Assembly: GCA_018398765.1 (NCBI GenBank)
Contig: JAHBMJ010000494.1
Span: 1-46,383 of the forward strand
Source: Chromera velia
Lineage: Eukaryota
Direction of reading: 5' to 3'
Length of the DNA: 46,383 nt
This document shows positions 3,040 through 46,383 of the stretch, one piece after another. Below the pieces are notes generated by a model. That model searched no databases. It saw only the letters and a program-made list of their open reading frames with translations, and was not told the origin of the DNA. Each line of letters begins with the position of its first letter. Position 1 is the stretch's first letter. Position numbers and translations under genes: made by a program.

Positions 3040-4023
3040 CCGGTTGTCCAGTAATTCTTTCAAATACTAGATTTATTGTAGCTTAAGAAATAGGCCACGC
3101 CAGAAGCTGATTTTTTTTGTAGTAAATTTCCCACGATATGGCATTGAATGAAAGCAAAAAAAGCTTCGTACGACTAGGGTGGCTTAAGCAAATTTTTGAA
3201 CCTGTTGTAAAAAATTCATATTTTTTATTTGGAGACCTCATTTTTTCTAGATTTTTTTTTTCGCTTTCTAGAAGGTTTGATGACCATCTAAGCCAGATTT
3301 CTAGGACTCGGGACAACACCGTTCCCTCATTGTCTCGGATCTTCTTTGGAAGAGCACCGCCTCTTCGCTCATCCGCATCTCTTTTGGGACAACACCGTCC
3401 CCTTACTGTTTCGGATCTTCTTTGGAGGAGCACCGCCCTCTTGCTCATCCGCATCTTGCCGCATCTTCGCTGGAACAACAGCGTCCCCTCATTGTTTCGT
3501 ATCCCTTTTGGGGGAGCACTGCCTCCTCGCTCTTCTGCATCTTATTTGGGGCAACACCGTCCCCTCACTATAATTTTGGTTCTTTTTGGGAGGAGCACCG
3601 CCTCCTTGCTCTTCTATATCTTGTCGCATCTTCGCTGGAGCAACACCATCCCCTCATTGTTTCGTATCCCTTTTGGAAGAGCACCGCCTTCTCGCTTATC
3701 TGCATTTTATTTGGGGCAACACCGTCCCCTCACTATAATTTTGGTTCTTTTTGGGAGGAGCACCGCCTCCTTGCTCTTCCACATCTTCTTTGGGACAGCA
3801 CCATCCCCTTACTATTTCGGATCTTCTTTGGGGGAGCACCGCCCCCTCACTTATCCGCATCTTCACTGGGGCAACACCGTCCCCTCATTGTTTTAGATCT
3901 TCTTTGGACTCCCGGCTATAAGTTGAATAACATGGTTTCCTAGCATGGTTTCTTTTGAGTTTTTGTTTCTGACTCACATGATTTTTTGTTTATTTTTTGT
4001 AGCTACAATTACTGGACAACCGG
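3040..4023. mobile_element. Non-autonomous Tc1/mariner-type element, TA TSD
   Basis: Perfect 17-bp TIRs CCGGTTGTCCAGTAATT (3040-3056, 4007-4023). TA at 3038-3039 and 4024-4025. The paralogous empty site TGCTGCC-TA-GGTAGC lies at ~10026-10040. Confidence 0.9.
3310..3905. repeat. Inserted block of the 33-36 bp minisatellite inside the mariner-like element
   Basis: Flanked by GGACTC (3304-3309, 3906-3911). 3791-3907 is identical to window 1-117. Confidence 0.85.
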
Positions 4024-4865
4024 TAGGCAGCAGCACGACTGCATCTTTCCCTCTATGCTCAGGTAGTGGCATGACTGCACCTTTCTCTCTTTGCTCAGTA
4101 AATCTCTCTCACTCTCTGCTCAGATAGCAGCATGACTACATCTCTTGCATTTTGCCGTCAAGCAACAGCACGTCGGTACTTGTTTTATTCTTCCGTCAGG
4201 CAGCAGCATCCCTGCATCTCTCGCGCTCCTAGTGCAAGCAACATATCTCTTCTCCATTATTCTTCATGCGGGCAGCAGCATAACTGTACGCATCTCTCAC
4301 AGTTTTTTGTACAGGTAGTACATCTCTTGATCCTCTTTCATTCTCTGCTCCGGCACTGCCAGTAGCAATACCATCACTGTAGCTCTGTCACTCTCTGCTC
4401 TGGCAGCCGCATAGCTGCATGTACCTCAGACTTTCACTCTCTCCTCCGACATCAGCATGACCGCATCTCTTTCATTCGATCTCCTTAGGCAACAGCAGGA
4501 CCATATCTCTTTCACTTTGAAATTTGGCTCTGGCAGCTGCATGACTTTACCCCTTCCATTCTTTGTGCAAGCAGCAGCATGACCGCCTCTCTTGCACCCT
4601 CTGTTTTGTCAGCAGTAGGACTGTGCCTCTTTCGTTTTCTGCTCCAGCAGCAGCATGACTTCATCTCTTCTATTCTTGTTTGCGTGGGCAGTAACATCAT
4701 TATCATGATGACTGCACCTCTCTCATTTTTTGCTCCAACAGCAGCAGGACCGTGCCTCTTTCACTTTCTGCCCTAGTAGCAGCTTGACTTCATCTCTTCC
4801 ATTCTTTTTTGCGCCAACAGCAGCATGACCGCCTCTCTTGCATCCTCTGCTCTGGTACTAGCAGA

Positions 4866-6023
4866 TAGGGAGGTGAAATGCTTTTAGCATGGGGNGGGGG
4901 GGGGGGGGGGCCGTGCTGCACGGCTTCGTCGCGCGGTAGCACGGCCCCTCCCCGTGCCGCAAAAAAAGGCTTCCGCACGGTACGGCCCTGCTAGGCCGTG
5001 CAGCACGGCAGCAGAATTTTCTCTAGTATGCGTTATGCATGAAGGCTTCTGAGGATGATGGACAATCTTCCTCTCACTTTCCCCTCCTTACTAGACTCAC
5101 CCTTCTGCAGCGCGACTTCCCGTCCTCCCGCCGTATGTTTGTCTTCCTCCTGTGCAGCAAGTCATCCTCCGGTGTTCCTTCCGTCTCTGCCCTTCCCCAT
5201 TCTGCCCTGTCGGTTACGGATGGCTCGATCTTTTCTTTTTTGCGCATACTGACATATAACCCGATGGGCGGGTAAGGTGGGCGGCCTGTTGGTTATTCTG
5301 ATAGAAAGCTCTGCACCTATGAAGCCTGCTGCCGGTGTGTAGATGATTTTATTCATCGGCTCTCTGTCTGCTCCCGATGGACTGCCGAACAAGGCTTTTT
5401 ACAGTGGTTGGCATTAATTCAATCAGACCGCTTCACTCGTTGTAACTCACCCTTTGCATCCACCTCTTTTTCTGATCTGGGGGTTCGCAAGTTCATCACA
5501 TCGCTCTTGCATTCTCAACCCTCTCTCTTCTTTATGATTTCTTGCCATATTGTAGTAAATGATTGATTAGATTAAATTTGAATAACTGTTGTCCACTTAG
5601 CTTGCAGCTGGCATAATTGAACAGACCCATGCTTGTATGCGCCGCCCGGGAGTTCTAATTCCACCTAGGGTTTGGCATCAATCAATCAATCAATCATGCT
5701 TTCTTAGCTCAGTCTTCGCGATATCAAGAGGACAAGTGTAGCCGAGCATCAAGCCAAGCGCTACCAGACCTGTCTACAGCTAGAGGTACACAACTCGGAA
5801 GTTGAAAGAAGTTGAGGCTAGACGGGGGGGTCGTTGCCATTCTAAAGGGGGCGATTGTTCATCCAGAGTCCTTCTGGCTAGCTTTAATAGTCTACTACAC
5901 GGTATAGCCCCCTCCTTGTTCTACGAACCTGGACCGCGCTCCATGCGGCCCGGGGAGGGGTCCCGTGTGGCTGGCAAGCCAGCCGCGCAGACTGGGACTC
6001 CCCCCCCTGATGTCATCCCCCTA
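4866..6023. mobile_element. Non-autonomous hAT-like element (TAGGG...CCCTA), copy 1
   Basis: Imperfect TIRs TAGGGAGGTGAAAT / ATGTCATCCCCCTA, CCGTGC/GCACGG subterminal repeats, and a degenerate offset 8-bp TSD (TACTAGCA/TAGTAGCA). Second copy at 10871-11377. Confidence 0.65.
5039..5695 (+). mobile_element. Probable 5'-truncated non-LTR retroelement insertion with (ATCA)n tail
   Basis: Absent from the paralog (~11047-11050). Flanked by an ATGC duplication (5035-5038, 5696-5699) and ends in (ATCA)5. No RT motif seen. Confidence 0.6.
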
Positions 6024-6039
6024 TAGTAGCAGGCATATG

Positions 6040-6645
6040 AGCAGAAAGAACGAACTCTGGGAGGCAGTCAGACATACAAGAAGGCCGAACTTGGAAAGAC
6101 AGTCAGACCAGCAGGAAGAACAAAATTAGGAAGGCCATCGGGCAAGCAGGATGACTGAAATTAGGAGGCGTTAGGAGGAAACTTAGGCGGGAAGGAAGGC
6201 CGAAATAGAGAAGGCAATCAGGGAGGCAGGAAAGTCAAAATTAGGAAGGCAACCAGACAGGCAGGAAGGCTGAAATGGCGAAGTCAGTCAGGCAGATAGA
6301 AAAGCCAAAATTTGGAAAGCATTGAGGCAGACAGAAAGACCGAAATTTGGAGGGCAATCAGGCAGGCAAAAAGGCTGAAATTGGAAAACAGTCAGCTTAG
6401 CAGGAATGCAAAACTCTGGAAGGCAGTCAGGCAGGTAAGAAGGCCAAAATTAGGAAGGCAATCGGGCAGGCAGGAAGACCGAAATTGGGAGTGCGGCGAA
6501 AGCCGAAATTAAGAAGGCAATAGGGTGGGCGGAAAGGCTGAAATTGGGAAGGTATTTAGCTAGACAATGCCAGACAGAAAGGCCAAAATCTGGAGGGCAG
6601 TCAAACAAGCAAGAAGGGCAAAATTTCGGAGGCAGTCAGGCCGGT
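6040..6645. repeat. Purine-rich ~32 bp minisatellite (AGGCAGTCAGGCAGGCAGGAAGGCCGAAATTGG-like)
   Basis: Repeated GGCAATCAG/GGCAGTCAG ... GGCCGAAATT motifs at ~32 bp period. Confidence 0.8.
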
Positions 6646-7006
6646 AGAAAAAAACACAGGCTCGGCACGTAGGAGCGCTGCTCCCTTTCACAGTCTGAAG
6701 ACTGCGGCCTTAACGAAAATGCAAAGACCTACCTCTGGAGGAGTTGAAGAAGGAGTGAGACACAAAACAAGCATCTCTTGGAGGAGACCCACGACCTGCA
6801 AAGAGCAGAGGAGGGGGGCAGGGGTGAATAACACACGCAAAAGGAGATGACAGTTTTATACCTTACCGAGGGCAGACCAGTCAGTCATTCAGAAACCACA
6901 ATAGCCAGGTTGTAGCCACACAGGAACACTTACAGACATCGTACAAAGCCTTCTGCATACACCAAGAAGGCTCATCTCTGCAAACAAGATTTTTTCAATT
7001 CCTTTA

Positions 7007-7246
7007 CTGGGAGGGGGGGGTGGACCCTCTCGTAGGGGTACAAAACAACCGACTTTTATACCCCTGGTAGAGGGGGGGGGTCCGACCTGCTCTGTAGGTT
7101 TGCATCCAAAATGTGTCTAGGAAACACTCCTAAACACATTTTGGACATAAACCTGCAGAGCAGGACCTGGTCGGACCCCTCCCCTCTACCAGGAGTACAA
7201 AATTCGGTCGTTTTGTACCCCTATGAGAGGGTCCAGCCCCTCCTGT
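7007..7246. mobile_element. ~240 bp fold-back MITE (near whole-length palindrome)
   Basis: The left arm (GGACCCTCTCGTAGGGGTACAAAACAACCGA...CCAAAATGTGTCTAGGA) pairs with the right arm (TCCTAAACACATTTTGG...TCGGTCGTTTTGTACCCCTATGAGAGGGTCC). TA on both flanks. Confidence 0.8.
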
Positions 7247-10200
7247 TACTAGTTGAACGACATAAAACGAACTGACCTGATTGAGCGATCTAAACCAGTC
7301 TGGCAACCCTTTTAATTGTCGTACAACTCCTTTGCACCGAAGCAACCACTCCCACGAGCAACCAGAGGTGTTCAGCCAACACAGATACCGGAGGGGGACG
7401 AAACTCCCGAATCTGTAACCCCTCCAAAAATGAGGTTCTGGAACAACAAGCTGAATACGATTTTATTGTTGTTAAGCTTTCCAATACAATCCAATGGAAT
7501 GCTTGACAATGAGATTTTATGGATAGAGGCCCATTCTGTTGACCCGACTTTCTGACTGGAGGAAAACTTTCTGAAGACCTGACTGAGAATTTTTTAGATC
7601 GGCATTTTGATGGGTCAGCGCGCAGCCAAGTAATGCTTTTTGGCCTTCATGGCCGGCTAGACCCTGGCCCGTAACGCGTAGCTTGCCTTCCGGGGCCGTT
7701 ACATGATTGGTCGATCTAAAATCGGCTCCCAAAATCGGCTTTCCGTCGAATGTTTCAAGTCGATCAGAGCATGACCTAGTACTACCTCTCTCCTATCATA
7801 TACACTTGCTCTCCAGCGATGAAAGTAGGCTTTATCGAAAGCCCAGAGGATTGGTTTCTTTGCTTTTTCTTGGGTTTATGACGTTCACTCTACTGGTTGC
7901 CCTGAGAGGGCAATTTCGATCTTCCATCACGAAGGGCACGGCCCGTCTCCACGCAAGAGGGCCTACAAAGTTACCCCAGTAAAGCTTCCATTGAATCTTT
8001 TCCATGCGTACGCTCTAACAAGCTCTAGATGAGGAGTTGGAAAGGCTTTTTGGATGAGGGGACTAGCTCTGGGTGGCCAAAAGGTGAGCCATTTTATGAA
8101 TTTTTATATATCTGTGCTGCAGGTCAGACTGAGCCTTTCTCAGAGGACCGTTTATTGGTGCTTGGATTTCGTGAAAAAGCATTACTGCTGGTAATCTCGG
8201 GTGATCTGAAGTTATGAGAGTGAGGCGCAGCTCTTATTTGTATGAGAATTTGGAGGTAGGGCTCCTGGGTAGACTAAGACCCAGTGGCCAGTGCCGGGCC
8301 TCACCCAGAAAAAACAAGAACGCTATGATGACTGGTCGTGGGCAAGGCCCTCTGGCTAGAGGCCATGGATCGATTAGGCTTTCAGAAGCTAAGTATTTAC
8401 CTCTTGTACGGTCATAGTACTCAACATTTGTTTGGTTGAACTGCTTTTTGTGGGTGTCAAATCGGCAGATCTGTTTGTGGACATTGATTCTTACCTTTTA
8501 TGGGGGTTACCCGCTGTGTGCTCCCTCCTTATATCAGTGTGCGGATTCGGCGTATTCCATTAGAAGTAAAAGTTAGCTTGTTTATACATTACACTGCGTA
8601 TTGTCACATGCTTGCAGAGTTTGCAATCAGTCCCCGACATATCAATATACTATAACTCTTTCACCTCACTCACGTCCAACAATTTCTAACATACATACCA
8701 CAAACCCATTAAACCTTATCTTTAAAAGTTGTTCATACTTTCATACAGGTAAGAAACAATAAATAGAATCATTCTAAGTGCTTTAAAGACTTCGTTTTTT
8801 ATATATAAAATTTACTGTGATACATAGAAAATTAAAAGTCACTTTCTAGTATAACAGTTTCAATTGTTAGTACAGTTAGTTTTTCTGCTCCGGCAATTAT
8901 AGCCTGACTTCATTTCTTTCATTCTTTATGCAAGCAGCAGTATGACCGCCTCTTTTGCATCCTCTGCTCCGGTAGCAGCAGAACCGGATCACACATTCAT
9001 TCCTCAGTCTTCTGCACACTGCGTTCTTCTTGTTTCTGAGCATTCAATCCTTATACTCCCCTGACTACACGCATTCTGCTTGCCCTTGAGCACATTCTCG
9101 TCTTCTGTCACCATGCACTGCATTTTTCTTGCCCCAGTGAATGAGCACACTCTGTTTACATGCCAATACGCACACGATTATTACCGAGCCAGACAGTCTG
9201 AGTGAGAACCCTCATACTTCGGAGTATCTTCGGTCTTTGTGTCTCTTTTCACATGTTTTTATTGATGCTGCTTTACCTAAACGCATTCTGTTCTCGAGTT
9301 CCTCCACACACATTTTTTCTTCTATCGTGCATACCCTGTTTTGTCCCTCAATATCTAAGCCGTCCTCGTGAACGCATTTTGTAGTCTTTGGCCATATGAG
9401 TCGTCGAAGAATTTTTGGGATCAAAGCAAAGACTAGAGCAAAGAACTCAGGCCAATGCACCTATGGCAAGAACCCTCGCGCTTCATCCCTCTGCATTCTT
9501 TTCTTCTTGCACATGATGACGGGCAAAAATCCTTATCTGCATCTCTTTTTGCTTGCACCCAGATGAGGGCAAAGATCCCTCTCTGCAATCATTCCTTCTT
9601 ACAGACAACATCTCCTTCATTCTTTGGGAATCTTTGCTTCGGCAGCAGTACGCATACACCACTTTGACCCTCATTCTCCGCTCAGGCCTGATTTTATCTC
9701 TTTCACTCTCTACTCCGGTAGCAGTACGACTGCATCTCTTTCATTCCTTACCCAGTCAACAGCAGGACTGCATCTCTGTCACTCTTTACTCACGAGCAGC
9801 CTGACTGCATCTCTTTCTTAGATTAGATCTCTTTCACTCTCAGCCCAGGAGCAGCACGACTGCATCTTCCCTTCTCTGCTTAGGCAACCGTATGACTAAA
9901 TCTCTCTCACTCTCGACTCAGGCAGCAGCATATTGAATCTCTTGCACTCTTTGGTCAGGCAGCAGCATGCCTGCACCCCTCTCACCCTCTACTTACGGGC
10001 AGCTTGATTGTACCTCTTTGCCCAGTGCTGCCTAGGTAGCAGCACGACTGCATCTTTCCTTCTATGCTCAGGCAGCGGTATGACTGCACCTTTCTCTCTT
10101 TGCTCAGTAAATCTCTCTCACTCTCTGCTCAGACAGTAGCATGACTACAAATCTTACATTTTACCGTCAAGCAACAGCACATCGGCACTTGTTTCATTCT

Positions 10201-10870
10201 TCTATCAGGCAGCAGCATCCTTGCATCTCTCGCGTTCTTGTTGCAAGCAACACATCTCTTCTCCGTTATTCTTCACGCGGGCAACAGCATGACTGTACAC
10301 ATCTCTCACAGTTTTTTGTACAGGTAGCATATCTCTTGATCTTCTTTCATTCTCTGCTCCGGCACTGCCAGTAGCAATACCATGACTGCACCTCTGTCAC
10401 TCTCTGCTCTGGTAGCCATATGGCTATATATATCTCTTTCACTCTCTCCTCCGACAGCAGCATGACCGCATCTCTTTCATTCGATCTCCTTGGGCAACAG
10501 CAGGACCGTATCTCTTTTACTTTGAAATTCCACTCTGGCAGCTGCATAATTTTATCCCTTCCATTCTTTGCGTAAGCAGCAGTATGACCGCCTCTCTTGC
10601 ACCCTCTGTTTTATCAGCAGTAGGACTGTGCCTCTTTCACTTTCTGCTCCAGCAGCAGCATGACTTCATCTCTTCTATTCTTGTTTGTGTGGGTAGCAAC
10701 ATCATTATCATGATGACTGCACCTCTTTCATTTTCTGCTCCAACAGCAGCAGGACCGTGCCTCTTTCACTTTCTGCCCTAGTAGCAGCTTGACTTCATCT
10801 CTTCCATTCTTTTTTGCGCCAACAGCAGCATGACCGCCTCTCTTGCATCCTCTGCTCTGGTACTAGCAGA

Positions 10871-11377
10871 TAGGGAGGTGAAATGCTTTTAGCATGGGGG
10901 GNNNNNNNNGGGGGGGGGGGGGGCCGTGCTGCACGGCTTCGTCGCGCGGTAGCACGGCCCCTCCCCGTGCCGCAAAAAAAGGCTTCCGCACGGTACAGCC
11001 CTGCCAGGCTGTGCAGCGCGGCAGCAGAATTTTCTCTAGTATGTATTATGCTTTCTTAGCTCAGCCTTTGCGATATCAAGAGGATAAGTGCAGCTAAGCA
11101 TCAAGCCAAGCGCCACCAGACCTGTCTATAGCTAGAGGAACACAACTTGGAAGTTGAATGAAGTTGAGGCCAGAGGGGGGGGTCGTTGCCATTCCAAAAG
11201 GGGCAATTGTTTGTCTACAGTCCTTCTGGCTAGCTTTAATGGTCTACCGTGCGGCATGGCCCCCCTCTTGTACTACGAACCTGGACTGCGCTCCACGCGG
11301 CCCGGGGGGTGAGATCCCATATGGCTGGCAAGCCAGCCGTGCGAACCGGGACCCCCCCCCCCGATATTACCCCCCTA
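10871..11377. mobile_element. Non-autonomous hAT-like element (TAGGG...CCCTA), copy 2
   Basis: Same sequence and insertion site as 4866-6023 but without the 657-bp insert. Contains an N gap in a poly-G run (10902-10909). Confidence 0.65.
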
Positions 11378-11623
11378 TAGTAGCAGGACCGTGCCTCTTT
11401 CACTTTTTGCCCCAGCAGTAGCATGACTTCATCTCTTCCATTCTTCTTTGCACCAACAGCAGTATGACCGCCTCTCGTGCATCCTCTTCTCTGGCAGCAG
11501 CAGGACTGTGCCTCTTTCACTTTCTGCTCCAGCAATTATAGCCTGACTTCATCTCTTCCATTCTTTATGCAAGCAGCAGTATGACCGCCTCTCTTGCATC
11601 CTCTGCTCTGGCAGCAGTAGAAC

Positions 11624-25185: not shown

Positions 25186-26292
25186 CTATCGATGCAGTCT
25201 CGCATTCATATCCTTGAAGGAGTCTAGATAGAGGAGAGCTTTATGATCGGTGACTACTTTGAAGAGAATACCGTATAAGTACTCTCGGTAGTGGTATACC
25301 CTCCATACGACTGCATACGCCTCTATCTCTGATATCGACCACCGAGCCTCAACGGTGGTGAGCCGGCGGCTTGCATACGAAATAACCCTTGCCCTCCCTT
25401 CTTTGTCCTCTTGCAAGAGGATAGCTGCCACCGCAGCTAGGCTGGCATCCGTGTGAAGAATGAAAGGCTTGGTGAAATCGGGGTAAACAAGCATATCTGC
25501 TGTGGTCAGTGCCTGTTTGAGTGCTCTAAAGGCTTCCTCTTGGGGTGCCTGCCACACGAAGGGGGTTCCCTTCCGAGTTAGCTCCAAAAGTGGAGCAGCG
25601 GTGCCGCTAAAATTGGGAACGAACGATCGATAGTATCCGCACACCTCCATGAAGCTTTTGATCTCTTTCACGTTTTTTGGGGCTCTTACTTCTGTGATGG
25701 CTTTCACTTTTTCTTCACAGGGGCGCAGGCCTTCTTGAGAGACCTGGAAGCCAAGGTATTGGAGCGAGGTTTGACCAAACCGGCATTTTTGGAAGGCTAG
25801 CCTCACATTGGCTTCAGTCAGCCTCTCCAGTATTCTTTTGAGATCGGATAAATGCTCTTCCCAACTGCTGCTGCTGCTGTATAAAATATCGTCCACATAT
25901 ACATTCGCGCAGGGAAGGTCACCGACCAGGCGGTCGATCGTCCTTTGGAACTTAGACGGACTGATCGAGAGGCCCATCGGGAGACTCTTATACTGGAATT
26001 GCCCCCACTTAATATAAAAGGCAAGCTTTGGTCGGTCTATCAGCCGCGCTACTAACTGAAAGAAAGCAGAAGGGAGATCAAGGAGTGAAAACAGTTTTTT
26101 CCCTCTCAGGGAGCTTAGGATCTTTTTGATGTCCCCCAGGGGCCAGTGGTCCCATGCTATCACCTTGTTGAGGGCTCGGAAGTCTACTGTGAGCCTGAGC
26201 TTCCCCGAGGATTTCCGTACGAGACAGACAGGTGCCCCCCAGGGAGAACGAGCAGGCTCAATGATGTCCTGTTTAATCAGTTCATTTATCAA
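25186..26292 (-). pseudogene. Gypsy reverse transcriptase / RNase H
   Basis: SPWGAPVCLV, LRLTVDFRALN, LPMGL, YVDD, FILHTDAS, VVTDHKAL. Flanked by stops within pol. Confidence 0.96.
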
Positions 26293-26433
26293 CTCCTTTG
26301 CCTCCCCTTCCAGCGCGTAAGGGATCGGTCGGGGCCGAACGTAGATCGGCTTTGCATCCCCTGTATCTATTTGGATTTCGGGGCCTTTGATTTTTCTAAT
26401 ATCCGTGGGGGTGGGGGCTAAACAAGCAAACTC

Positions 26434-27525
26434 TTATAAAAACATCCTCAGCTCCCCTTTTTGTTCTTGTGTGAGCTCCCCACTCTTCTGAACGGCTTCT
26501 TCGATGCTTTTCCTGGCTTGTTCTGTTTCAAATTGTGCAGTTTGGGTCGGGGAGCAGGCATGGAGGGGTATTGTTTCGGGATCGCCGTCTTCAACGACTT
26601 CGGTTACTAGGGCCGAGACGTTGGGAAGGTCAGGAGGTGTGGCTATTGATGTCGCAGGGTGGCTGGAAAGGGATCGTTCAGCGGACCCCCCTCTTTCCTT
26701 GCTCACTTCCTGTTTTCCTTTCTCATCAGCTTCTGGCAGGGTCATGCAAACTGTGACAACTGCCACAAGCATGAAAGGTTTCACCGTGCATTCATGGGTT
26801 ATGCAATTGCAGAGTGCTACTCGAACCGAGTGGTTTTCGACTATTGATACCGTTTCTTGCATTTCTATTCCTGCAGGTAGCAACTCCCTGCGAGGAACAG
26901 TCAGGGGCGACACGCACACCATGGTCCCGTCGGGCATGGGAGTTCCGTCGGGGATCCTAATGTTCAAATAAGAGAGAGTGAGGGGGTATAGGACCTGAGA
27001 TGAGGGAAGAGAGAGAGAGAAAGGAAGAAAACTTCTTTCTTTTTCCAGCACAGTCATAGGGGTCAGAGTAACAGGCAAAGGAGGCAAAGAGCCTGGCGTG
27101 ACCCCCGTCTCCTTGAGAAATAGGCAGTCTGGTTTGAATCCAACCGCCTCAGTATGGGTTCGACAGAAGTCAATCCCCAGAATGCATGCATGTCGTGTAT
27201 TCCTCATGACATAGAAGGTCTGTTTCCTTACCTTGTCCATAAAAAGACTCAACGTAATCACCCCCACATTCTCCAAACATTCCCCTCCTTCATCTTTCAA
27301 CTTCATGGGGGATGGATATATTGTCAAACGGTAAGACCCTCCATGCATAGCATTCAACCTCAACAACACTTCTTCCCCCAGTGTCGACACATCACTCCCT
27401 GTGTCAATCAGAGCTGGGATCATGAACGTTTTTTCCAGGTCAATGCACATTCCTATCCTACTGGCCGCAGGGTGGAGATTGATGTGGGTGACAAGTGCTT
27501 CTCTCTGCGGTACAACTGGGGCCAT
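26434..27525 (-). pseudogene. Retropepsin aspartic protease plus long spacer
   Basis: ALIDTGSDVS and CILGIDF motifs. Confidence 0.9.
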
Positions 27526-27820
27526 TCCGGGCGCCTGACTCTGCCCCTCGAAGGCAGGCGCCTAGGCAGGCGCATCAGTGTTTTTGCTGGCCCAAGGGAG
27601 TTCGGTTGGCTACTGAGGCTATGACTCCGGATGGAGGCAACGCTCTCAAGGGGGGTCTGTCCATAACTCTCGGGAGTGACATAGGGACACCAGGGGTCCC
27701 TCTTCGGGGCATGACCTGGTGTGGTTGGCCTGAGGCTCCTCTTGCAGCTAGGGGTGCAACCCAAGGCTCCTGTTGGATAGGTCGGCCCCGGCCCGCAGGC
27801 GGCCCTGAGGGCTCAAATCG

Positions 27821-28156
27821 TCACCCCTGGGGTCTGTTCCAGGGCCTTTTCTGATTGTTACGTGTCCACCCGTTCTGCTGAGGGAGTGTAAACTCCGAAG
27901 AGTGGGGGTCGGGAAGCTCACGTCTAGGAGGGGGCCCACCCCTGAACTGAGTACCTTCCCATCGTCCTCCAGACCTAAAAGCATCCCTGCTGTAGGCATC
28001 TTGCCCCCATCTAATTCTAATTGGTGGGTTGGGGCAAGTTGCTTTGATATGTCCTGTCTGTTTACACCGGTGACAGGTGGTTGAAGCAGGAACAGGGCAC
28101 CCCTCTTCTGTGTGTGGTCTCGTTCCTGCACACCGCTCACACTGCACTTCTGGCAT
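27821..28156 (-). pseudogene. Gag nucleocapsid with two zinc knuckles
   Basis: CERCAGTRPHTEEGC and CHRCKQTGHIKATC. Confidence 0.88.
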
Positions 28157-28284
28157 TGTTGAGAACCCTTCGCATCATCTCTTCTGGGGGCATCATCAAC
28201 TATTCTTCCTTACTTTGCGACTGGACATTTGACTCTTCTCCTTCTACTGCTGAAATCCGAAGACGTTTGATGGGTCGGTCTCCC

Positions 28285-28815
28285 TCACTTACCCCCCCTA
28301 TTTCTTGGTTTCGTTTCTTTTTCACTACGTCCTCCCACTTCCTCAGCTACACCTGCATCTAGCTCTTCAAAAGTGTCATACGTTTTGCTTTCTATTTGAA
28401 TGCAGACCTGATCATCCTCCAGGCCCTCAATAAAGGCTGCTAGTGCGGTCGGGTCGTCGGTGCCTTGGTCTGCAATCCCGCAATTTTCCTCAAAATGTCG
28501 AACATACTCAGTAGAGCTCTCCCCAAACTTCTGAGCGATCTGCAACAGCTCTCTCTTCTTGTGCTCTGCTTCTCTCTCATCTATGCCATATTTTTTCATG
28601 AACAGCATTTTTAGGTCTTTATGAGTGGCACACTTGGCTATCCTTTCAGGGGGTAACATCTCAAACCATTCTTTTGTAGGTCCTTTGAGGGTAGTTGGGA
28701 GGTAAATGTTTTTGAGGTTTGTGAATGTCCACCCGAGGCTCTCATACAGTCTCATCAACGAGTTCCAAAAACCCCAAGCCTTCACGTGGTCTCCGTCAAA
28801 CGATGGTGAGTCCAT
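28285..28815 (-). pseudogene. Gag capsid (retrotransposon gag)
   Basis: PSFDGD, LKGPTKEWF, LKMLFMKKY, QKFGESSTEYVRHF, FIEGL. Confidence 0.88.
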
Positions 28816-29110
28816 CTTTACTTTGGGGAGGTTAAAGGGGGGCAGGGATGGAACTATATCGGCGCCTGGGGTCTGCAGCGCAATGGCACTCTAGATAATG
28901 CCATGTCAACAGACATGGGTTCTATGCAGCGAAGCTTCAGTACCCCCATATCGGATCTTGTCAGAACAATCCCCATGTTGTGCAATTCAGACAACACCTC
29001 TGGAGAGGCCTCTCGTGATAGGATCTCTTCTCCATCCTCCCCTAAGTCTCCTACCTCTAGACCCTGTATCCTACTCCTTCTATGCATCGGATCTGTACAT
29101 CTATTTCCTG

Positions 29111-30393
29111 CATAGTTGCACAAGTACACTGTACTACACTGTACTACACTGTACTGTACTGTACTACTGTACTATAATATCTACACTGTACTGTACTACT
29201 GTACTAGACCTTAAAAAAAAATTTCTTCTATTTCTAGTGTCCTAAGGGGTCTCTTAACCTACATTAATACTGTATCAATGTGTGCTAAGTTATCATATGG
29301 TAATGATGAATTACAGTAACTTAGAGAAAGCTTCCAAAAGAATTGAAACTATATGTTATACATATATATATATAATTATATATACAAAATATAAATTCAT
29401 ATACCATCATTACAACAGTCCTAGCAACAGTCTCAGCAGTCTGCCCCCCCCCTCCCTCCCTGTCCTTTCTGTCAGACTCAGAAAAGAGCCTCTCTAAACT
29501 CTAGTCCGATGCTTTTCAGGTATTCAACTACCATCTCTCCATCCAACTCATCATCGAATGCCTCTACTAACTCATTAGACGCAAGGTCGAATCCCTGCAG
29601 GCCCAAAATCTGTGTCTCTCTTCTATGATGCCCCGGGCCGGCATTCCTCTGATGAACCCTCTGGAGGTGGAGGTTGGCGGAGGTTGGCATGTGTGGTGAC
29701 CAGCAAGTCCTAGTGCGGCTAGGTGAGACGGTTTCTCTTCTCAGAGTAAACCTGGCTGTAGAGAGAGAACCTCCGCTCCGAGACTCCCGTTAGCGGCCTG
29801 AAAGACCTCCGTGGTAAGGGCGGCGTTCTTGGAAGCTGCTTCCACAAGGTTGTCCCGGCACCACCAGGAGAGGTAACCGTTGTCCACCTTGTTGTCTGAC
29901 GATATACAGTTAGGCTGAAGAGGGTGTGTTGCAGCCTGTACTGCTTTGCACCACTTCAACATTATCTACAAGGATATCGTTACCTTGGATTCCCTCCACC
30001 CCTCGACTTCAACATACAAAACCTCGTCTAAAGACCCGAGGGATAGAACGGAAACATTGTATTCTCGTGGTTGAGAGGCTTCACTTGAAGCCATTTTTTT
30101 CTCTAATTTATGTTTTAGAATGCAAACTTTAACTATTTACTATTTACTATCTTAAATTACTATAAAAACATCATGAAAACTCACTAAAACACTAGTAAAA
30201 AGTTACTAAAACTTAGCTTATAAACATGCTAAACATGCTAAAACTTAGCTTAAAAGCTTATAAAAAGGTAGTGGGACGAGTGGCGGGCGGCCCCCCCAAT
30301 TTAGTGAGGCAGGGCGGGGCGGGCCGCTCGAATTGTACTGTACTGTACTATACTAGTTTTGCTTCTACACTGTACTGTACTAGTGCAACTATG
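29111..30393. mobile_element. Non-autonomous 8-bp-TSD DNA transposon (P- or hAT-like, CATAG termini)
   Basis: 18-bp TIRs CATAGTTGCAC(A/T)AGTACA, perfect TSD ATTTCCTG (29103-29110, 30394-30401), and CTGTA subterminal repeats. Excision restores the minus-strand frame LVGPGN|RCTDP. Confidence 0.92.
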
Positions 30394-30745
30394 ATTTCCT
30401 GGCCCTACTAGTTGTTCTACCCTCTCTTCCCCTACTTCCTCTGCCTGCACCTCTTGGACCATAGGGTTGGCGCATGCCGGGGCCCGCCGGGTTCCTTTTT
30501 GCCCCCCCCCGCCCATATGTAGGCGGCGCTTCGCCGCCGAAAACTCAACTGAACCAACCAAGTAGCCTCCAGAGCTGAAAGTTGGGGGATTTCTCACCCA
30601 TCCCACTCTTATCAATTCTATGGAACAGAATTTGCAGACTCAACCTATAGCCTCTGCACCAGCAGTTTCCTGTTTGGCAATGTGTATAGACTTTTATTTC
30701 TGAGGTGTTGTTCACTGTTGTTTGAGCTCAGTTCCAGACTGAGCC

Positions 30746-32109
30746 ATGTTGCAAGCCACGATGCCACCGCTCCCACCGCCCAAATCTTCGAAGGGGCGTA
30801 AAGGAGTGGGAGGGAGACCCACAAGAGCAGAAGCAGAAGGTCTGAAGGACAGATATGTACCCTTAGGAGAGTACCGTACCAACCTTGTCTCAACCATGTG
30901 CGGTTCGTCTCCTGCATTGGAAAGGCCCCACCACATAGCAGGGCTAGAGGCCATCAAGGCCTATAGGGACAGAGAAATGCCGCCTTTCACTGCAGTGCGG
31001 ACCGAACAGCAACAGCAGGAGCGAGATGCCCACCAGCAAGAGCAGCATAAAAGGAAGAGACGGATGAGTGAGCAGCCGGGGGTGTATTGGGGGCAGGTTG
31101 TAAAGCGATTTGCATCTGATGCCCCGTCTTGGCCCCTTCATGACAAGTACAAAGAGGCCGCAGATGCGCTTTCCTCTGCAGCTCCCTTGCCTCCTATTCC
31201 CGAGGAGGACCCCGACGCTGCTAACGGCAGCTACGAGAACGGCCGCCGGAATCGGGCCAACACGATTGAGAAGCTCGACAGTTGTCGGGACGCCCCGTCC
31301 TTCCATGGAGCGCCCATCCTTGACCCCCGAGACTATGAGAGGTCAGGGAAGGGTGCAGAAAAATTGGCCGACAAGACGACCGCAGTGGTTGGGCTAGTGG
31401 ATGACCTGTATGGGCTGAAAGGCCTGCCCGCAGAAGAGCGTGCGGAAGGCCTCACATCGGCCTTTGCTTCGATCGCGTGCAAGGCCTCCTCCATCAAAGA
31501 AATGGAATTGGCCGAGAAGATTGCAGAGAACACACAGCAGGGGGGGTATCGTTTCGTAGATACAGAGAGGGAAAATAGAGCAGATATGCCCTTTCACATC
31601 AAAAAGAGACTTGAGAGAGTGAGGGGGTTGAACAAGATGTGCAAGATTAAGAGCAAGCAGGCGAAAAGTCTGAATTTCTGGCTCCACAAGAAATGGAAGA
31701 GAACTCCAGCCGATTGGCTCGACTATTGTCTGCGCAATGGCCTCATCCGGACAAAGTTGGGGAGGCTGAGAAGGTTTCTGGGGTTCGAGGTTGTCCCAGA
31801 CCCTAAGGATGTGTTTGGGCCCCTGTGTGACTTGCAAAAGAAGCTTCGTGAGCAGGGGTTCTTCCGACCGTGCTCCAAGTTGGTTGGGGAGGTGACAAAA
31901 AAATTGAAGGAGAAAAACAAGGAGGGAAGGGGGGAATATTTGCTGCATTCACAGTCAATCCTGCAGACTACATACGGCTTCTGATGGAAGATGAGTGGGG
32001 GGGGGAATACTTCTCTACCAACGCGGACCTCTCAGAAGAAGGAGTCATCGGCCAAGAGTGGGTCGTCTCCATCGATGGCTCCTCTGGGTCTGGCCTAGCT
32101 GACGGTTGG

Positions 32110-32166
<57 letters not shown>

Positions 32167-32313
32167 GTATGTATGTGTATGTGTGTGTGTGCATGTGTGT
32201 CTGTGTGTGTGTGTGTGTGTGTATGTGTGTTTGTGTTTCTGTTTCCAGTTTGTGTTACCCTCGCAACCGCTCGCAACTTGACCCCTGCACAAAATTGTGT
32301 GTGTGTGTGTGTA

Positions 32314-32348
<35 letters not shown>

Positions 32349-33412
32349 GTGCGGCAGAATTCATCTGCATTCGCCGTTTTCGCACGACCATGTGGAGAAG
32401 TGCCTGCGTGTGTCAGGAATGCAGGCAAGGGAGGAGGTCCTCTGCGAGTGAGGCTGAGCTGAATACAGAAGAGGGGGACGAAATTCCCTCCCCCTGTGAG
32501 GAAGAGGAGGAAGCGAAAAGGAAAGAGGGGGAGGAGACAAAGAAAACCAAGATCCAGCCCCTTTGCCGTCATGAGTGCAGCTGCCCTCTCGAGCCAAACG
32601 AGGAGGGCAAGCAGTGTGGACGGAAAGTCCTGTACGAGATGAACTCTCTTTGGAGGGACAGCATCCTAATCAACATAGACATACTGATTCCGGTAGCCAA
32701 TCCGGAGCTCTCGAAGAAGCCAACTGCCCCAAAGTTCGTCTGGCCAAAGAAGAGTCTGCAGGGGCAGACTGTTGTGAAGCTGTCCCTTCAGCACAAAGAC
32801 ATGTTCTGCATATGCCACATGACGGACACAAAAGAGAGGATTATGCAGATATCGTTGTTTCAGTGCCTGCATATTCTTCGTATGACAACAGATTTGGATA
32901 TGAAAGGGACAGGAAACTACGCAGCTGCGTTGTGGCAGTTGAAAGATCTTTTTCTGCAGATTTATAAACATACGGGGGTAAAGTGGAATGAGACCCTCCA
33001 CAGGCTTGAGCATGCCTGGTATTGGCTGAGAACGAGGGGGTCTTATGGGAGGGTCTTCAATATGCAGGCTCATGAAGCCTTCAACCGGGTCATTAAGGAG
33101 GCCTTTTCATCAAAAGGCGCCTCAAGTCATGGTACGTTTGGCACAAAGGCCCCAACGGGAAAGTGGGAGGGAAGAGACCTGGACATGGGCCGTCGGCTAG
33201 TGACTGGCCATCTCTTGCAGACCCTGTCGGCTTCCAGTACCGCCGACAGAAGGACAGAGGCGCGGACCGCTTCCCGCCTTGAACTAATGCTTGCACCAGG
33301 TGAGAAGGAAGACCTCTCGTCAGAGAGTGAAGCTGATTCCGATGCCGATTTAGACATATCTGTTGAGCTTGATTTCGTTGAAGACGTTCAGGACCAAGAT
33401 GAAAACATGTAA
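30746..33412 (+). pseudogene. RAG1/Transib/Chapaev-like DDE transposase (frameshifted, microsatellite-filled intron region 32105-32357)
   Basis: VFGPLCDL (31811; cf. RAG1 IFQPLHAL). WVVSIDGSSG (D at 32074; cf. Transib KWGCDGSSG). CICH (32807). LHRLEH-x8-GSYG-x-QAHEAFNRVIK (E at 33074; cf. RAG1 HKTLAH...GSIG...EGNESGNK). 1-nt frameshift near the G run 31929-31934. The second catalytic Asp was not located. Confidence 0.7.
32111..32351. repeat. (CT)n and (GT)n microsatellites in putative intron(s)
   Basis: Donor GTTGGT at 32105; candidate acceptors TTCCAG (32248) and GGCAG (32357). Confidence 0.85.
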
Positions 33413-33760
33413 AAAAAAATTAATAGCATATAAATTTTAAGCATTAAATTTTAAGTCATTTGAACTCTACTTTAAATTAAGTAGATTCAGGTGACGTATA
33501 TTTGCGTAGCATAGCATAGGATTGATATTAACCGTCAACTATATTTTTAACTAGAATTTATAAATCAATAAATAAAGTATACATAAAGTATATAAACTAT
33601 AATTTAAATGAAATACATTAACCGTCAACTATATTTCAAACTAGAATTTCTCAGTTTAAATTTTATACTTCGATCAAAAACAATTTAAATTATAAGTATA
33701 CTTTAAGCATAAATTAAAATTTAAAATAGAATTAAATGAACGGTTTTTTGTTTAAAATCA
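33413..33760. other. AT-rich spacer between the convergent genes (likely shared 3' UTR/polyadenylation region)
   Basis: Abrupt AT enrichment after the stop at 33412, AATAAA at ~33572, and a ~33-bp direct repeat ATTAACCGTCAACTATATTT..AACTAGAATTT at ~33527 and ~33617. Confidence 0.55.
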
Positions 33761-33872
33761 AACCTCAAACCTCAATGACTCAAACATCAAAATCAAAGTA
33801 GACTTTATCCTGTCCGTCATCGGCCGAATCCTCTGCGGGCGCCGAAGGCTGAAAAGAGAGTGGCGGCCCACT

Positions 33873-35400
33873 TCAAGCCACCTGAAGGACACCTGCTCCT
33901 GCTGCAGCCACTGCTGCAGGTGCTGGTGCAGCAGCAGAAGAAGAAGAAAAGGCCACAAACGTCACCCACTCCATTGCTGCAGGGTTGTTTGGGATATCAT
34001 ACACCAGGTGAAGGGATGCCGACCCCACCCTGCTGCTGCTGAACAACATGTAAATGGAAGGACAAAGGAGCCGTCTTGCCACCCCCCCCTCCACTCCGAA
34101 CCATCGGTTAAAGACGGCATCGACCTGCAACCCGGGCAGCACACCCTGGATCGCCTTTCCCCTCAGACGGACAACGCAGGGGCGCTCCATGGCTGTCCTA
34201 AATTGGACGGCCTCCATCTTAAGGAGGCGCTCCACTGCCTTCCACCTCTTTGCATCATTTTGGGGCTGCCTTTTCTTCAGCTTTCTCTTCTTCCCCCCTC
34301 CTCCCTCCGCTCCTTCTTCCTCCAAGGTCACCTCCTCCTCGGGGTTGTAGTTCGTTGTCAGTAAGGCACGCATCCTCTCGTCCATCACGTCGAATACGGG
34401 ATCCACTCCACAAATCACCTCTGCACTCATAGAGGCGCACATACACCATCAAGTCATTCATCCCTCCATCCATCACCAGGTAGGCAGGCAGGCAAACAGC
34501 CCGGCAGACAGGCAGGCAGACAAGGCAGGCAGACAAAGTAGGCAGGCAAGGTAGGCAGGCAAGGCAGACAGGCAAGGCAGGCAGGCAGGCAGGCAAGCCT
34601 GGCAAGGCAAGGCAGGCAGGCAGGCAGGCAAGGCACGCAAGGCAGGCAGGCGGGCAGCTGGGCAGAGAGGCAGGCAGGCAAGTACAGGCAGGCAGGTAGG
34701 GTCCACCTATCTGTTCATGCACTCATGCATCCATGCACCTATTCTTCCGTTTCCCCGGTCCAAACACCCCTCCACAGTGTGACCAGCACTGCTTCATTGG
34801 GGGAGAAAGATGTATCGAATCACCTTTCGGAATGTCGTCCTGCTCGGCTGACGCATCTACTTCCCCCAGTCCCAGAACGACCCTCCCCCATACGTAGTGA
34901 AGTCTGAGGAACCCCGTCAGAATGTCCATCTGGTAAGTAGCGAGCGAGAGGACTCGGTACTTCAACGCGAAGTACTTGAGGCCGTTCGACACGCACAATC
35001 TGTAGGACAACCAATTCAATGAATCATGAAATTCATTGAATTCGTCCTTGCACAAGTCAAAAAAGGCCCAGCCCCTCGCAACCCAGTGCTCTGGGATTTC
35101 TTTTGGGGCCTCTCTGGCCCCGTACTCAGGCCTCCGCATTGTCGACAAGAGCAGAGTTTCGAACAAAATAGAGAAAGAGTTGGTCATTTTCGATTGGAGC
35201 GAGTCAAACAATTTAAGGACTCCGTCTTTCTTCTCTTTTGGGGGGGCCGACTTTCCTTCCAACGCTAAAATTAGGGCCGTGATGGGTCCCTCATCCAGAA
35301 ATATGCTTGTGCACTGCCTCACTGCTGCGATGGCTGCCTCCACACTTTCAGCAGCCATGGAGACGGAAGGGAGCGGACACGAACTTTTTTTAAAAAACAA
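33873..35400 (-). CDS. Second, convergent gene of the transposon, unknown protein (probably two exons, ~35358-34739 and ~34420-33873)
   Basis: 225-aa and 189-aa ORFs separated by a (CCTG)n tract, starting at the inner edge of the right TIR, with basic NLS-like KKRKLKKR. Exact splice junction and frame unresolved, so it may be a pseudogene. Confidence 0.55.
34478..34700. repeat. (GGCA)n degenerate microsatellite (putative intron)
   Basis: GGCA/AGGCA repeats, with a minus-strand AG|GTGCAT donor at 34738. Confidence 0.85.
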
Positions 35401-35600
35401 ACTGGCAAACAGGAAACTGCTGGTGCACTAGCTATAGTTAAAATCTGGAGATTCTGTTCCATAGAATTGATGGGAGTGGGATAGGTAAGAAATCCCCCAA
35501 CTTTCAGCTCTGGAGGCCACTTGGTTGGTTCAGTCGAGTTTTCGGCGGCGAAGCGCTGCTTTGGGGGGGCAAAAAAGAACCCGGCGGGTCCCGGCATGCG

Positions 35601-36085
35601 AAAAAGTCCGATCCTAGAGGCACCCTGGCGTCTGCTAGTGCCAGGTTTCATGCCTCGAGATCGAGGGTTGAAGAGACAGAGATGGAAGGCCCCTCCAACA
35701 CCACATCGTTTCCCCCTTCGGTCTTCATATGCACTTGACGGACGTAAGCCTTCATGGGGGGGCTCCCGTCTGCAAGCCCTCTGCCGGAAGAGAACAATAA
35801 GGTGAGGAATTTCCGCGCGGAAAGTCTATACAGGTGGCGGTAGACAACCGCCTGCTCTCTCCGGATATTGATAGTTTTAGCCGACAGGTTCAGAGTTCTT
35901 CTCCCCCCCTCGACGGCCACATGGCGCTCGTCGGTCTCTTTCCTAAGAAACCTTAGCTCCCTCAGAAAACCCGCCCTGTTCCCAAACTTCCGCCGCAGCA
36001 TTCTGACCGTCAGCCTGTCGAAAACAGCAAGCTTGCGCTGCGATCCACTGAGAAGATGAAAAGCGTCTCGGCTCATTTCTCTCAA
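35601..36085 (-). pseudogene. Probable N-terminal part of the Gypsy gag ORF
   Basis: The 145-aa ORF continues past one stop, in frame across both excised insertions, into 30470-30402 and 29110-28854. Confidence 0.6.
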
Positions 36086-37568
36086 ATAAAAGTTCTACAA
36101 AGCCTACAGAGGGACAAAATCGAAACAGAAAGCAACTTATAGAGCAATTTAGTATGCAGCAACTTTCTGTACCTTCAAGTACTGTGGCTGTTGTCACATC
36201 TGGCAGCCCGCCTCTTCTGGAGCTCGCAGTCTGGACACCTACAGAAATAGCCCGTAGACATTCGCGTGGATATTTAAATTTAGTGGGTCGCGGGCCCGTC
36301 AGGCTGAATTTCGTGCACCAGATTGGCGCCGGGCGGGCCCGACCCTTTGGCCACGTTATGGCATGCAGCGCTAGAGGCGCTGCACGGGCGCCGTGCCAGT
36401 GAAGGGCCCCGGCGTCAGCTACTGCATCTTCACCTACACATTCGACTCTTAAAACAATCTTTTTACTCTATAAAATGCACCTATCAGATGCATCCAGCCT
36501 GATCGAGGTGCATAGGTGTAAATCAGGTGTATCAGGTGCATTTTTTCAGAATGTACCTTTTTTGGAATGCATCTTTTCCCGTCTTAGCAACTATGCACTG
36601 ACTGGAAGGAAAATGACTAAAAAGATTGTCGGCGTATCTGTATGTACTGGATTCTGCGATCGTATGTGCATGAATCTCTTTTTCTTTCTTACCAAGTACC
36701 AACGCTTGCAAATTGCAATAAAACCGCTACGGATTGGGCATACTTGTAAGCGAGCGATACAAGTACAAAAAAATGTATAACGATGTACCTCACAGTCTTT
36801 GTCCGATAAATATAGCATTATTAAAAGTAATAGAGCTCTAAATAGAGCTCTTTATGAAGATGACTCGGGACCGAGCCACTCAAGCGCCGCCAGACGGAGC
36901 CTTTCTATCGGATTTGGGACCGCTGCCGCAAGTTGAACGGATTTCAGGTCTTTTCAAGGGCTACGGCAAGCGTTTTCACAAAAAAAGCGGTGGCCACAGC
37001 AACGATGAGATGCGGAGCGCCGCATAATTTCATGTGCGTCTCTTTAGAAACGACTTTTGAAATGGCTGAATATTCAATTCCCTTTCCAGATTTGAGACGT
37101 TTCAAGGACTTCCTAGCCGACACTTCTTCTTCATAGGTACATCGATAGACTTGATAAACTGACTAATTAACTGATAGACTGACTACTGACTGATAGGACC
37201 CCGGGATTTATTCTGGTAAGCTCCGAAGTAGCTTAGAGGGAGCTCGTCTCCCGTCCATATAAACTTCAATAGTGACTCCATCGTTCGTACTTACAACCTT
37301 CTTTCTTTTTCTAGTTCTTTGCTAGCCCTGCATCAGCCCTAAGGTATTGAATTTTTATGACAGCTTAGAGTCACTGTTCCGTCGTTTCTTTTTGAAGATG
37401 AGTAAGAAAGCCAGTTCAGCTTCCGTCTCCAGTGATAAAATTTTTTAAGAAGTCCTGAATCGGCGTTTTCCCTCTTCTTCTCGTCTAGCTTTTCGTGCAC
37501 GAGCCCTTGATGATACATGCATAATGTATGATCATATATGATCGCCCTGCGTCGGCGCTGCATGATCG

Positions 37569-38026
37569 CATGCCGGGGGCGAGGGGGGTGTTTTTTGTCC
37601 CCCTAAAGCGGCGTATTTCCGCAACAAACTCGTTTTCATAATTGGTAAGGAGTTAGAAGCTGAAACTTTGTGTAAGAAGACGTTGTGACGATAGAAAAAG
37701 AACTATGGAACAGATTTTTTATATCATTTCTAGAAACATAGGCTGTCATACAAATTTTTTGATTTTGAGGCCATTTTTTAACGGTTTTGAATAGTAAGAA
37801 AAACGGTATGAAACTTACAAAATTTGTATGGCAGCCTATATGTTTCTAGAAATGATATAAAAAATCTGTTTCATAGTTCTTTTTCTATTGTTACAACGTC
37901 TTCTTACATAAAGTTTCAGCTTTTAACTCCTTACAAATTATGAGAACGAGTTTTTTGCAGAAAAACGCCGGTCTCCTATGCAGAGAGGGGGACAAAAGGG
38001 ACTCCACTCCCGGGCTTTCCGGCATA
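37569..38026. mobile_element. MITE related to the RAG1-like transposon
   Basis: ~190-205 bp inverted arms; CG-CATGCCGG...CCGGCATA-CG; shares spaced motifs with the TIRs of 30473-35598. Confidence 0.85.
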
Positions 38027-38057
38027 CGATCATACATCATCTCTTCCTCCATATAGA

Positions 38058-45631: not shown

Positions 45632-46157
45632 ATGTGTGCAGCCTTCTAAATGCCTTGGAGACCGTTTTATTCTCATTATTTCCACTGACCAGTGTTCCGG
45701 ATCCTTGCTATATGCAGTTGCTTTGGTAGAATAGCTTTCTGAGAGGTCAGAAAGAGGTAGAGTGGGGCATGCGTATGCCTCAGCTCACGGAAGGGTGCTC
45801 CTGCGACTCCCTGGATGGGCCATGTTTTCCCTTAGAGGGGCCGGGAGCACTTGTTTTGTCTTGTTCTCTCTTTTTCCTCTCTCTGCATCACTCTGCAGTG
45901 TTCATGGCCTGCATTGTTTCTTCTGCTGCCCCCCTTTTCCCCTTTATTTCTTTCTTTCCACCCCCCTCCTTCACTTTTTTATTTTTTTTCATGCCCTCCT
46001 CCTTTCAACCCTGTCTCCCTCCCTCCATCCGTCCCTCCCGCCCTCTCACCCTTCCCCCCTTCCTTCCTTCTGTCATCCTGCCTCTTGATTCCCCTTCTGC
46101 TTCCCCTCTGCCTTTCCCTTCCTCACCCCCCCTCCTTTCTAGCCCCCTCCCCTCTCT

Positions 46158-46383
46158 CCCTCCCTCACCTCCCTCCCTCACCTCCCTCCCTCACCTCCCT
46201 CCCTCACCTCCCTCCCTCACCTCCCTCCCTCACCTCCCTCCCTCACCTCCCTCCCTCACCTCCCTCCCTCACCTCCCTCCCTCACCTCCCTCCCTCACCT
46301 CCCTCCCTCACCTCCCTCCCTCACCTCCCTCCCTCACCTCCCTCCCTCACCTCCCTCCCTCACCTCCCTCCCTCACCTCCCTC
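46158..46383. repeat. Perfect 13-bp tandem repeat (CCCTCACCTCCCT)n
   Basis: About 17 identical copies running off the window end. Confidence 0.95.

Follow-up and report, generated by a model that had tools for sequence, protein, structure and literature searches.

Transib families with ends resembling RSS12 and RSS23 have been known since 2005, as described for Transib5, Transib2_AG and TransibN1-3_AG (PMC1131882; also PMC8355894). In subgroup I Transib the ends are all asymmetric, and spacers of 4/13 are given for AanRAGL (PMC9435367). ProtoRAG (BbeRAGL), with spacers of 27/31, prefers unlike ends, symmetric pairs being only moderately less active (PMC8289069), and a 10-bp asymmetry is described for PflRAGL-A together with the hinged nonamer-binding domain (NBD) mechanism of RAG (PMC10462144). 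For invertebrate RAG-like (RAGL) transposons it has been argued that asymmetry matters rather little (PMC7204232), and the origin of the 12/23 rule is debated between a Transib seed and RAGL-A (PMC8355894, PMC10462144). The target site duplication (TSD) and the tips are labile within Transib, with non-C tips in some elements (10.64898/2026.08.26.747230). Elements of the CMCT clade have 5'-CA..TG-3' tips in most cases and TSDs of 2-5 bp, including fixed dinucleotides (PMC12730594; for the placement of Chapaev, see PMC4411706). End asymmetry of about one helical turn is, in short, already known in Transib and RAG-like transposons.

We analysed a window of 46,383 nucleotides from Chromera velia (contig JAHBMJ010000494.1), which contains a large element (30473-35598) and a MITE (37569-38026). 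The ends differ by about one helical turn in both (2/2) complete elements. New are the alveolate host, the very remote transposase, an offset located 34 bp into long TIRs, and a partner gene that is not RAG2.

As in Transib, the transposase has a (predicted) DDE core of RAG1 type carrying C(2)C and H(3-4)H motifs, and autonomous as well as non-autonomous elements have ends about one turn apart (PMC1131882, PMC9435367). Unlike Transib, these elements have TIRs of ~200 bp, CATG/TATG rather than CAC tips, a likely 2-bp CG rather than a 5-bp duplication and an offset lying 34 bp in from the tip; the large element has a second gene, and there is no detectable sequence similarity. Canonical Transib has 38-bp ends with a CAC-starting heptamer and a nonamer rich in A, a 5-bp TSD and a single gene, none of which is seen here. 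The large element shares with RAGL/ProtoRAG a TIR-flanked tail-to-tail gene pair, a (predicted) RAG1-like transposase and unequal ends (PMC8289069, PMC10462144, PMC9435367), but its second gene has no kelch or PHD Pfam match, and no CAC heptamer, 5-bp TSD, RING or Chapa match was found. An 11-bp difference between otherwise matching ends is also a feature of V(D)J signals and the 12/23 rule, although the ends described here match neither heptamer nor nonamer and are five times longer. EnSpm/CACTA, ESTA, Plavaka, Mirage and Chapaev have CA..TG tips, duplications of 2-5 bp and the same motif set as the large element (PMC12730594). The likely duplication here is CG rather than TA, the large element has a convergent orphan gene, and one-turn asymmetry is not mentioned in the sections available on these lineages. 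An apparent TA duplication, again in contrast to CG, is reported for Oriex Transib (10.64898/2026.08.26.747230).

Arrangement of the two elements

The large element (5.1 kb) carries two tail-to-tail genes between TIRs of ~213 and ~202 bp. Its long TIR (30473-30685, plus strand) lies upstream of the transposase gene and contains a 21-nt spacer at 30502-30522, and its short TIR (35397-35598, minus strand) lies upstream of the second gene and contains a 10-nt spacer at 35560-35569. The MITE (458 bp) consists of a short arm of 172 bp (37569-37740, plus strand; 10-nt spacer at 37598-37607), a non-coding centre of 98 nt (37741-37838) and a long arm of 188 bp (37839-38026, minus strand; 21-nt spacer at 37972-37992). 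Each end can be divided into a constant 34-bp outer block (CATGCCGG ... TTTTGYCCCC), a spacer of 10 or 21 nt, and an inner array that extends over 130 bp or more. The outer signature YATGCCGG-N16-TTTTGYCCCC matched three of the four arms with no mismatch, the MITE long arm being the fourth, and three matches were reached in 0/100 shuffles (mean 0.02).

The spacers, which separate TTTTG and the (G/C)C(G/A)GCG motif, were re-measured in all four arms, and the values given by the sequence-only reading were reproduced, as was the difference of 11 bp within each element (21/10 in the large element, 10/21 in the MITE). Also borne out was its remark that the long spacers of the two elements differ in sequence (11/21 identical; the short spacers are 8/10 identical). 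Since YCCCC follows TTTTG in all four arms and the variable part is ~5 versus ~16 nt, the spacer borders are arbitrary, and the only value independent of them is the 11-nt difference. In a MAFFT alignment of the four arms, both short arms are interrupted at one shared position by a single gap of 11 columns. Because this gap lies at one homologous site, the offset has a single origin, and the large element and the MITE count neither as two independent origins nor as replicated evidence. It is the persistence of the 11-nt offset that goes beyond chance, not its double occurrence.

The earlier reading had cautioned that the MITE long arm has 5 extra nucleotides distal to TTTTG; these are real, TTTTG ending at 34 and not at 29. 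The insertion looks private to this copy, since positions 38020-38039 are at single-copy depth (10.4 in run X1, 34.2 in run X2) and other right-type arms have the standard 29-nt outer length (5 contigs in X1, 7 and 5 in X2, among the 12 of 111 loose-end rows listed).

The small element had been regarded as the MITE of the large element. Comparison of the arms indicated instead that it represents a sister family rather than a derivative or deletion product, as arms were ~90% alike within each family and ~48% alike between families. The inner arms were identical at 116/130 and 119/130 positions within families (outer arms 27/29 in the large element), and at 61-64/130 positions, without a gap, between families (outer arms 21/29). 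Shuffled sequences gave 32 +/- 5 matches, with 64 reached by 0/100,000, and the best shifted register gave 41. Three inner motifs lie 58/69, 90/101 and 135/146 bp from the tip, the same in both families. Likeness of ~90% within families and a gapless ~48% between them implies that substitutions spread between the arms, that indels failed to build up and that the offset persisted. Within each lineage, the arms were homogenised on both sides of the spacer, with rigid spacing and the offset kept. As judged from these alignments, the offset has outlived ~50% divergence and arm homogenisation, while the long spacer drifted.

Tips, target site and other copies

The tips are CATG in three of the four ends and TATG in the fourth, in line with the 5'-CA..TG-3' form of the CMCT clade. 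A CG dinucleotide is present on both flanks of both elements. At the large element it occupies 30471-30472, likely the left copy of a 2-bp target-site duplication, and 35599-35600, likely the right copy, where the junction was read without differences in X1 record 6 and X2 record 15; at the MITE it occupies 37567-37568 and 38027-38028. The flanks, TGGCG/CGAAA and GATCG/CGATC, contain no 5-bp TSD, and a CAC heptamer or an A-rich nonamer at RSS distance was absent from the ends of both elements. Among the 12 of 111 loose-end rows listed, the match of other MITE copies began either at the C, in 10 and 11 contigs, or at the G, in 7 and 7 contigs; in the latter the preceding consensus base was T, which is likely CpG decay. 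The right-end consensuses in the same 12 rows have CG after the tip, followed by variable sequence. An empty-site paralog keeps one CG; it is 4 nt short under the CG reading and fits a 4- or 6-bp duplication too. The CG flanks, the pooled flanks of other copies and the single CG at the empty site make CA/TA tips with a 2-bp CG duplication likely. We set aside as less likely a GATC duplication of 4 bp combined with G..C tips, since the flanks of the large element do not fit it and the pooled flanks show only CG. Our literature search found no precedent for a CG target duplication, which, if true, would be unusual. The MITE lies in a palindromic site, ATGAT CG ATCAT, within another repeat of about ten copies (37164-37567, 38027 onward), and the empty-site paralog of its insertion came from run X5.

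Contig depth, as a rough measure, put the large element at ~8-12x and the MITE centre at ~330-370x single-copy, the latter corresponding to several hundred copies. Contigs from other MITE copies contain both arm types. One single-copy X1 contig aligned to the MITE short (left) arm with exactly 11 gap letters and another aligned over 142 nt with none, and three contigs (one from X1, two from X2) aligned to the MITE right arm run into a short-type spacer. The three short-type contigs on the right arm and the 11-gap long-type contig on the left may indicate that either symmetric copies exist, or the contigs were misplaced between arms that are 92% identical. No contig spanned a whole other MITE among the 16 of 1,856 pieces listed. 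The long-arm junction of the MITE was read by one single-copy contig (X1 record 8) with 0 differences. The summed depth of the short spacer was 1.2-1.4x that of the MITE centre, a rough value closer to a single short arm per element than to two; summed contig depths are inflated by overlaps and unfit for counting long versus short arms. The indel table showed no spacer indels of sizes other than 11, a weak result in that it also omits the known 11-gap contig.

In the stretch of the large element aligned in X1, 249/290 places differing from other copies were transitions, and CpG observed/expected is 0.6, suggesting that decay was methylation-driven or RIP-like. Two more high-copy repeats with sharp ends flank the large element (30301-30393 and 36372-36635). 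Short pieces (151-236 nt) close to it, within 30583-34071, were seen in a marine sediment metagenome (run X9). A pattern scan of metagenome contigs gave 0 matches, and another scan gave 2, both being the same GC-rich stretch; these had no other similarity and were judged to be chance. Pattern scans gave 0 matches in viral contigs and 45 in prokaryote genomes, with 0 of the latter confirmed.

A remote transposase and its convergent partner

The CMCT/RAG1-like DDE transposase gene (30761-33412, plus strand) is broken; an intact copy would encode ~950 aa. One base is missing after 31938, causing a frameshift, and all covering contigs from X1, X2 and X5 have one more T. The first Asp motif, SIDG, lies near 32074 and its exon ends at 32104; HxxxH is found at 32999-33013 and the Glu motif QAHE at 33074. 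The segments coding for the second Asp, CxxC and PDLLH are absent from this copy at a (TC)n/(TG)n microsatellite, an intron remnant (32105-32350), where coding sequence was lost by deletion or at an assembly join. Paralog segments P0002 349-480 and P0019 418-459 correspondingly had no tblastn match in the window. An X5 contig bridging the lost segment has 369 letters versus 256 in the window, and the figure of 369 disagrees with the summed paralog exons.

Proteins of the window share 86-95% identity with the gene models of Chromera velia. The motifs SIDG, GTAD, CxxC, PDLLH, HxxxH and QAHE occur in CMCT order across the paralog models P0002/3/4/5/8/19, no one record having all, so that across these models a DDE triad contains C(2)C and H(3-4)H in the interval from its second D to its E, as in the CMCT clade. 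The second Asp is 19 aa from CxxC and the last His 21 aa from the Glu; the corresponding spacings in mouse RAG1, from residue numbers, are 19 and 20 aa (PMC4914335). In the ESM Atlas, P0002 residues 215-480 matched clusters of the RAG1 pre-RNase H/RNase H/ZnC2 region with features of 0.95 (173 shared) and 0.94 and TM values of 0.71 and 0.74, and CACTA Tnp2 clusters with features of 0.92 and TM values of 0.60-0.66, such kinship being a lead from features and predicted models. The C-terminal exon matched a RAG1 ZnH2/C cluster (0.92, rank 22), the sole RAG1 cluster of 30 matches. At E<=0.001, Foldseek yielded 0 matches, and the AlphaFold2 models had mean pLDDT values of 36 and 37; neither was informative. 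A GGRP motif at transposase residues 17-20 recalls the GRPR/K motif of the RAG1 NBD (PMC10462144), and this likeness is only a lead, as it lies ~420 aa ahead of the first Asp.

Pfam, NCBIfam and PDB sequence searches matched no transposase family, and no sequence search returned Transib or RAG1 sequences. A full HMMER scan of 1.84 billion representative proteins gave four matches, all of them Chromera records, and hence no relatives outside Chromera. Among the four is P0009 (Cvel_15884), which belongs to a second Chromera transposase family, 35% identical; this family is a candidate partner for the MITE family. Academ, Kolobok and MuDR were considered as identities and were supported by no Pfam match. 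EnSpm/CACTA elements carry CACT(A/G) tips. The large element has CATG tips, no match to PF02992 (Transposase_21) by hmmscan, and a match to Tnp2 at the level of the fold only. By its motifs and the predicted models, the transposase belongs to the CMCT clade (CACTA/Transib/RAG1), leaning towards RAG1, and cannot be classed as a canonical Transib or RAGL. Our literature search, which did not extend to Repbase, found no description of this transposon family and no paper with both 'Chromera velia' and 'Transib'. The text supplementary file of PMC9435367 contains no Chromera, Vitrella or Alveolata, though tables supplied as pictures would escape such a search.

The second gene (33780-35358, minus strand) encodes a 390-aa orphan. 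Its 403-nt GT-AG intron (34421-34823; CT..AC on the forward strand) is skipped at a joint in X5, which is an RNA run by guess only, and the copy in the window has a premature stop at 33873-33875. The full-length protein P0017 matched 0 Pfam families at E<=10, with no kelch match. Paralogs of the second gene adjoin transposase paralogs by gene number at two loci (Cvel_13850/13851 and 15946/15947), and the pair therefore likely travels together. A different copy (X5 record 22) has the short end joined to the second gene, aligning over 34851-35600 with 0 gaps and 27 differing letters; the long end joined to the transposase gene was in no contig among those listed for the large family. The start codons of the two genes are located 40-75 bp inward of the TIR ends.

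Proposed pairing of long and short ends

The window holds a broken two-gene transposon and a sister-family MITE with ends 11 bp apart, and we lean slightly towards the view that the predicted RAG1-like transposase pairs a long with a short end. The catalytic core would grip the outer block and cut at the CA/TA tip, and a second DNA-binding module, provided by the N-terminal part of the transposase and/or the protein of the second gene, would hold the inner array. The extra helical turn would leave the inner sites on the same face, one turn further out, and a tilted dimer, like the hinged nonamer-binding dimer of RAG, may accommodate one long and one short end better than two ends of the same length. 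Insertion would likely duplicate a CG. The offset is a real feature and, by analogy, would work like the asymmetric ends of Transib and RAGL. The earlier proposal that the transposase may require asymmetric pairing, on the model of the 12/23 rule, stands in part. The RAG1-like core (features 0.95, TM 0.71-0.74) and an offset kept through ~50% divergence speak for the comparison, but a CAC heptamer is missing, and the offset is located within the terminal blocks, not between them. Pairing of unlike ends is more likely to be a preference than an absolute rule.

The same arrangement could have arisen if the inner array simply had to lie on one helical face, so that spacers of 10 and 21 nt both work, any pairing is accepted, and one ancestral 11-bp indel survives. 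We regard this as possible but rather doubtful. The offset does have a single homologous origin, and 11 bp preserves helical phase. Large loops are poorly repaired. The indel could tentatively be supposed to persist through the copying together of whole elements, homogenisation mending point mismatches and not an 11-nt loop. Many Transib families also have symmetric ends (PMC1131882, PMC9435367). Against such tolerance, homogenisation acted on either side of the spacer in each of the two lineages for long enough to allow ~50% divergence. A fold-back MITE present in several hundred copies has also retained both types of arm; replacement of an arm by copying of one whole end would have erased the offset.

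The 10/21 pairing is known from two complete elements only, and the damage in the large copy falls at the very place where two copies might have been joined. The pairing might then be an accident of two copies or of the assembly, in a family that mixes 10/10, 10/21 and 21/21 elements; the internal loss at the microsatellite, a flank match of 2 bp only and the three short-type contigs on the MITE right arm could be read in this way. We consider it very improbable, given that the MITE is short and its long-arm junction is read in one single-copy contig (X1 record 8), that another copy joins the short end to the second gene (X5 record 22), and that the depth of the short spacer is, roughly, nearer one short arm per element. 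Promoters within TIRs drive two convergent genes in MuDR-like layouts. The offset could likewise tune TIR promoters and have nothing to do with end pairing, and both the start codons close to the TIR ends and the splicing of the second gene in the presumed RNA run X5 would suit such a role. The gene-less MITE family, however, has the same offset and motif register, and a promoter function as the explanation is highly improbable.

The pairing of unlike ends could be taken further, to a separate alveolate RAG1-like lineage that, with ends of 200 bp, CG as its target and a convergent partner protein unrelated to RAG2, enforces a one-turn long/short rule. This stronger claim is a tentative one and rather doubtful. 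If it were true, both the layout of ProtoRAG and a rule of the 12/23 type would have arisen twice, or would be older than RAG2, and a RAG2-free system would be at hand for testing how end asymmetry is read. Two families with an exact one-turn offset, together with a MITE of several hundred copies, offer a natural statistical test of 10/21 versus symmetric copies, and a remote alveolate RAG1-like transposase with a non-RAG2 partner would make a bench system on the origin of the 12/23 rule.

Elsewhere in the window, the remains of an LTR retroelement occupy 25186-28890 (minus strand), with Pfam matches to gag, aspartyl protease, RT and RNase H. An unrelated second fold-back MITE-like element with nested inverted arms lies at 7012-7244. 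Large degenerate tandem arrays of 38-nt, 35-nt and 13-nt units are found at 1-11600, 6039-6650 and 46080-46378, part of them duplicated ~6 kb apart.
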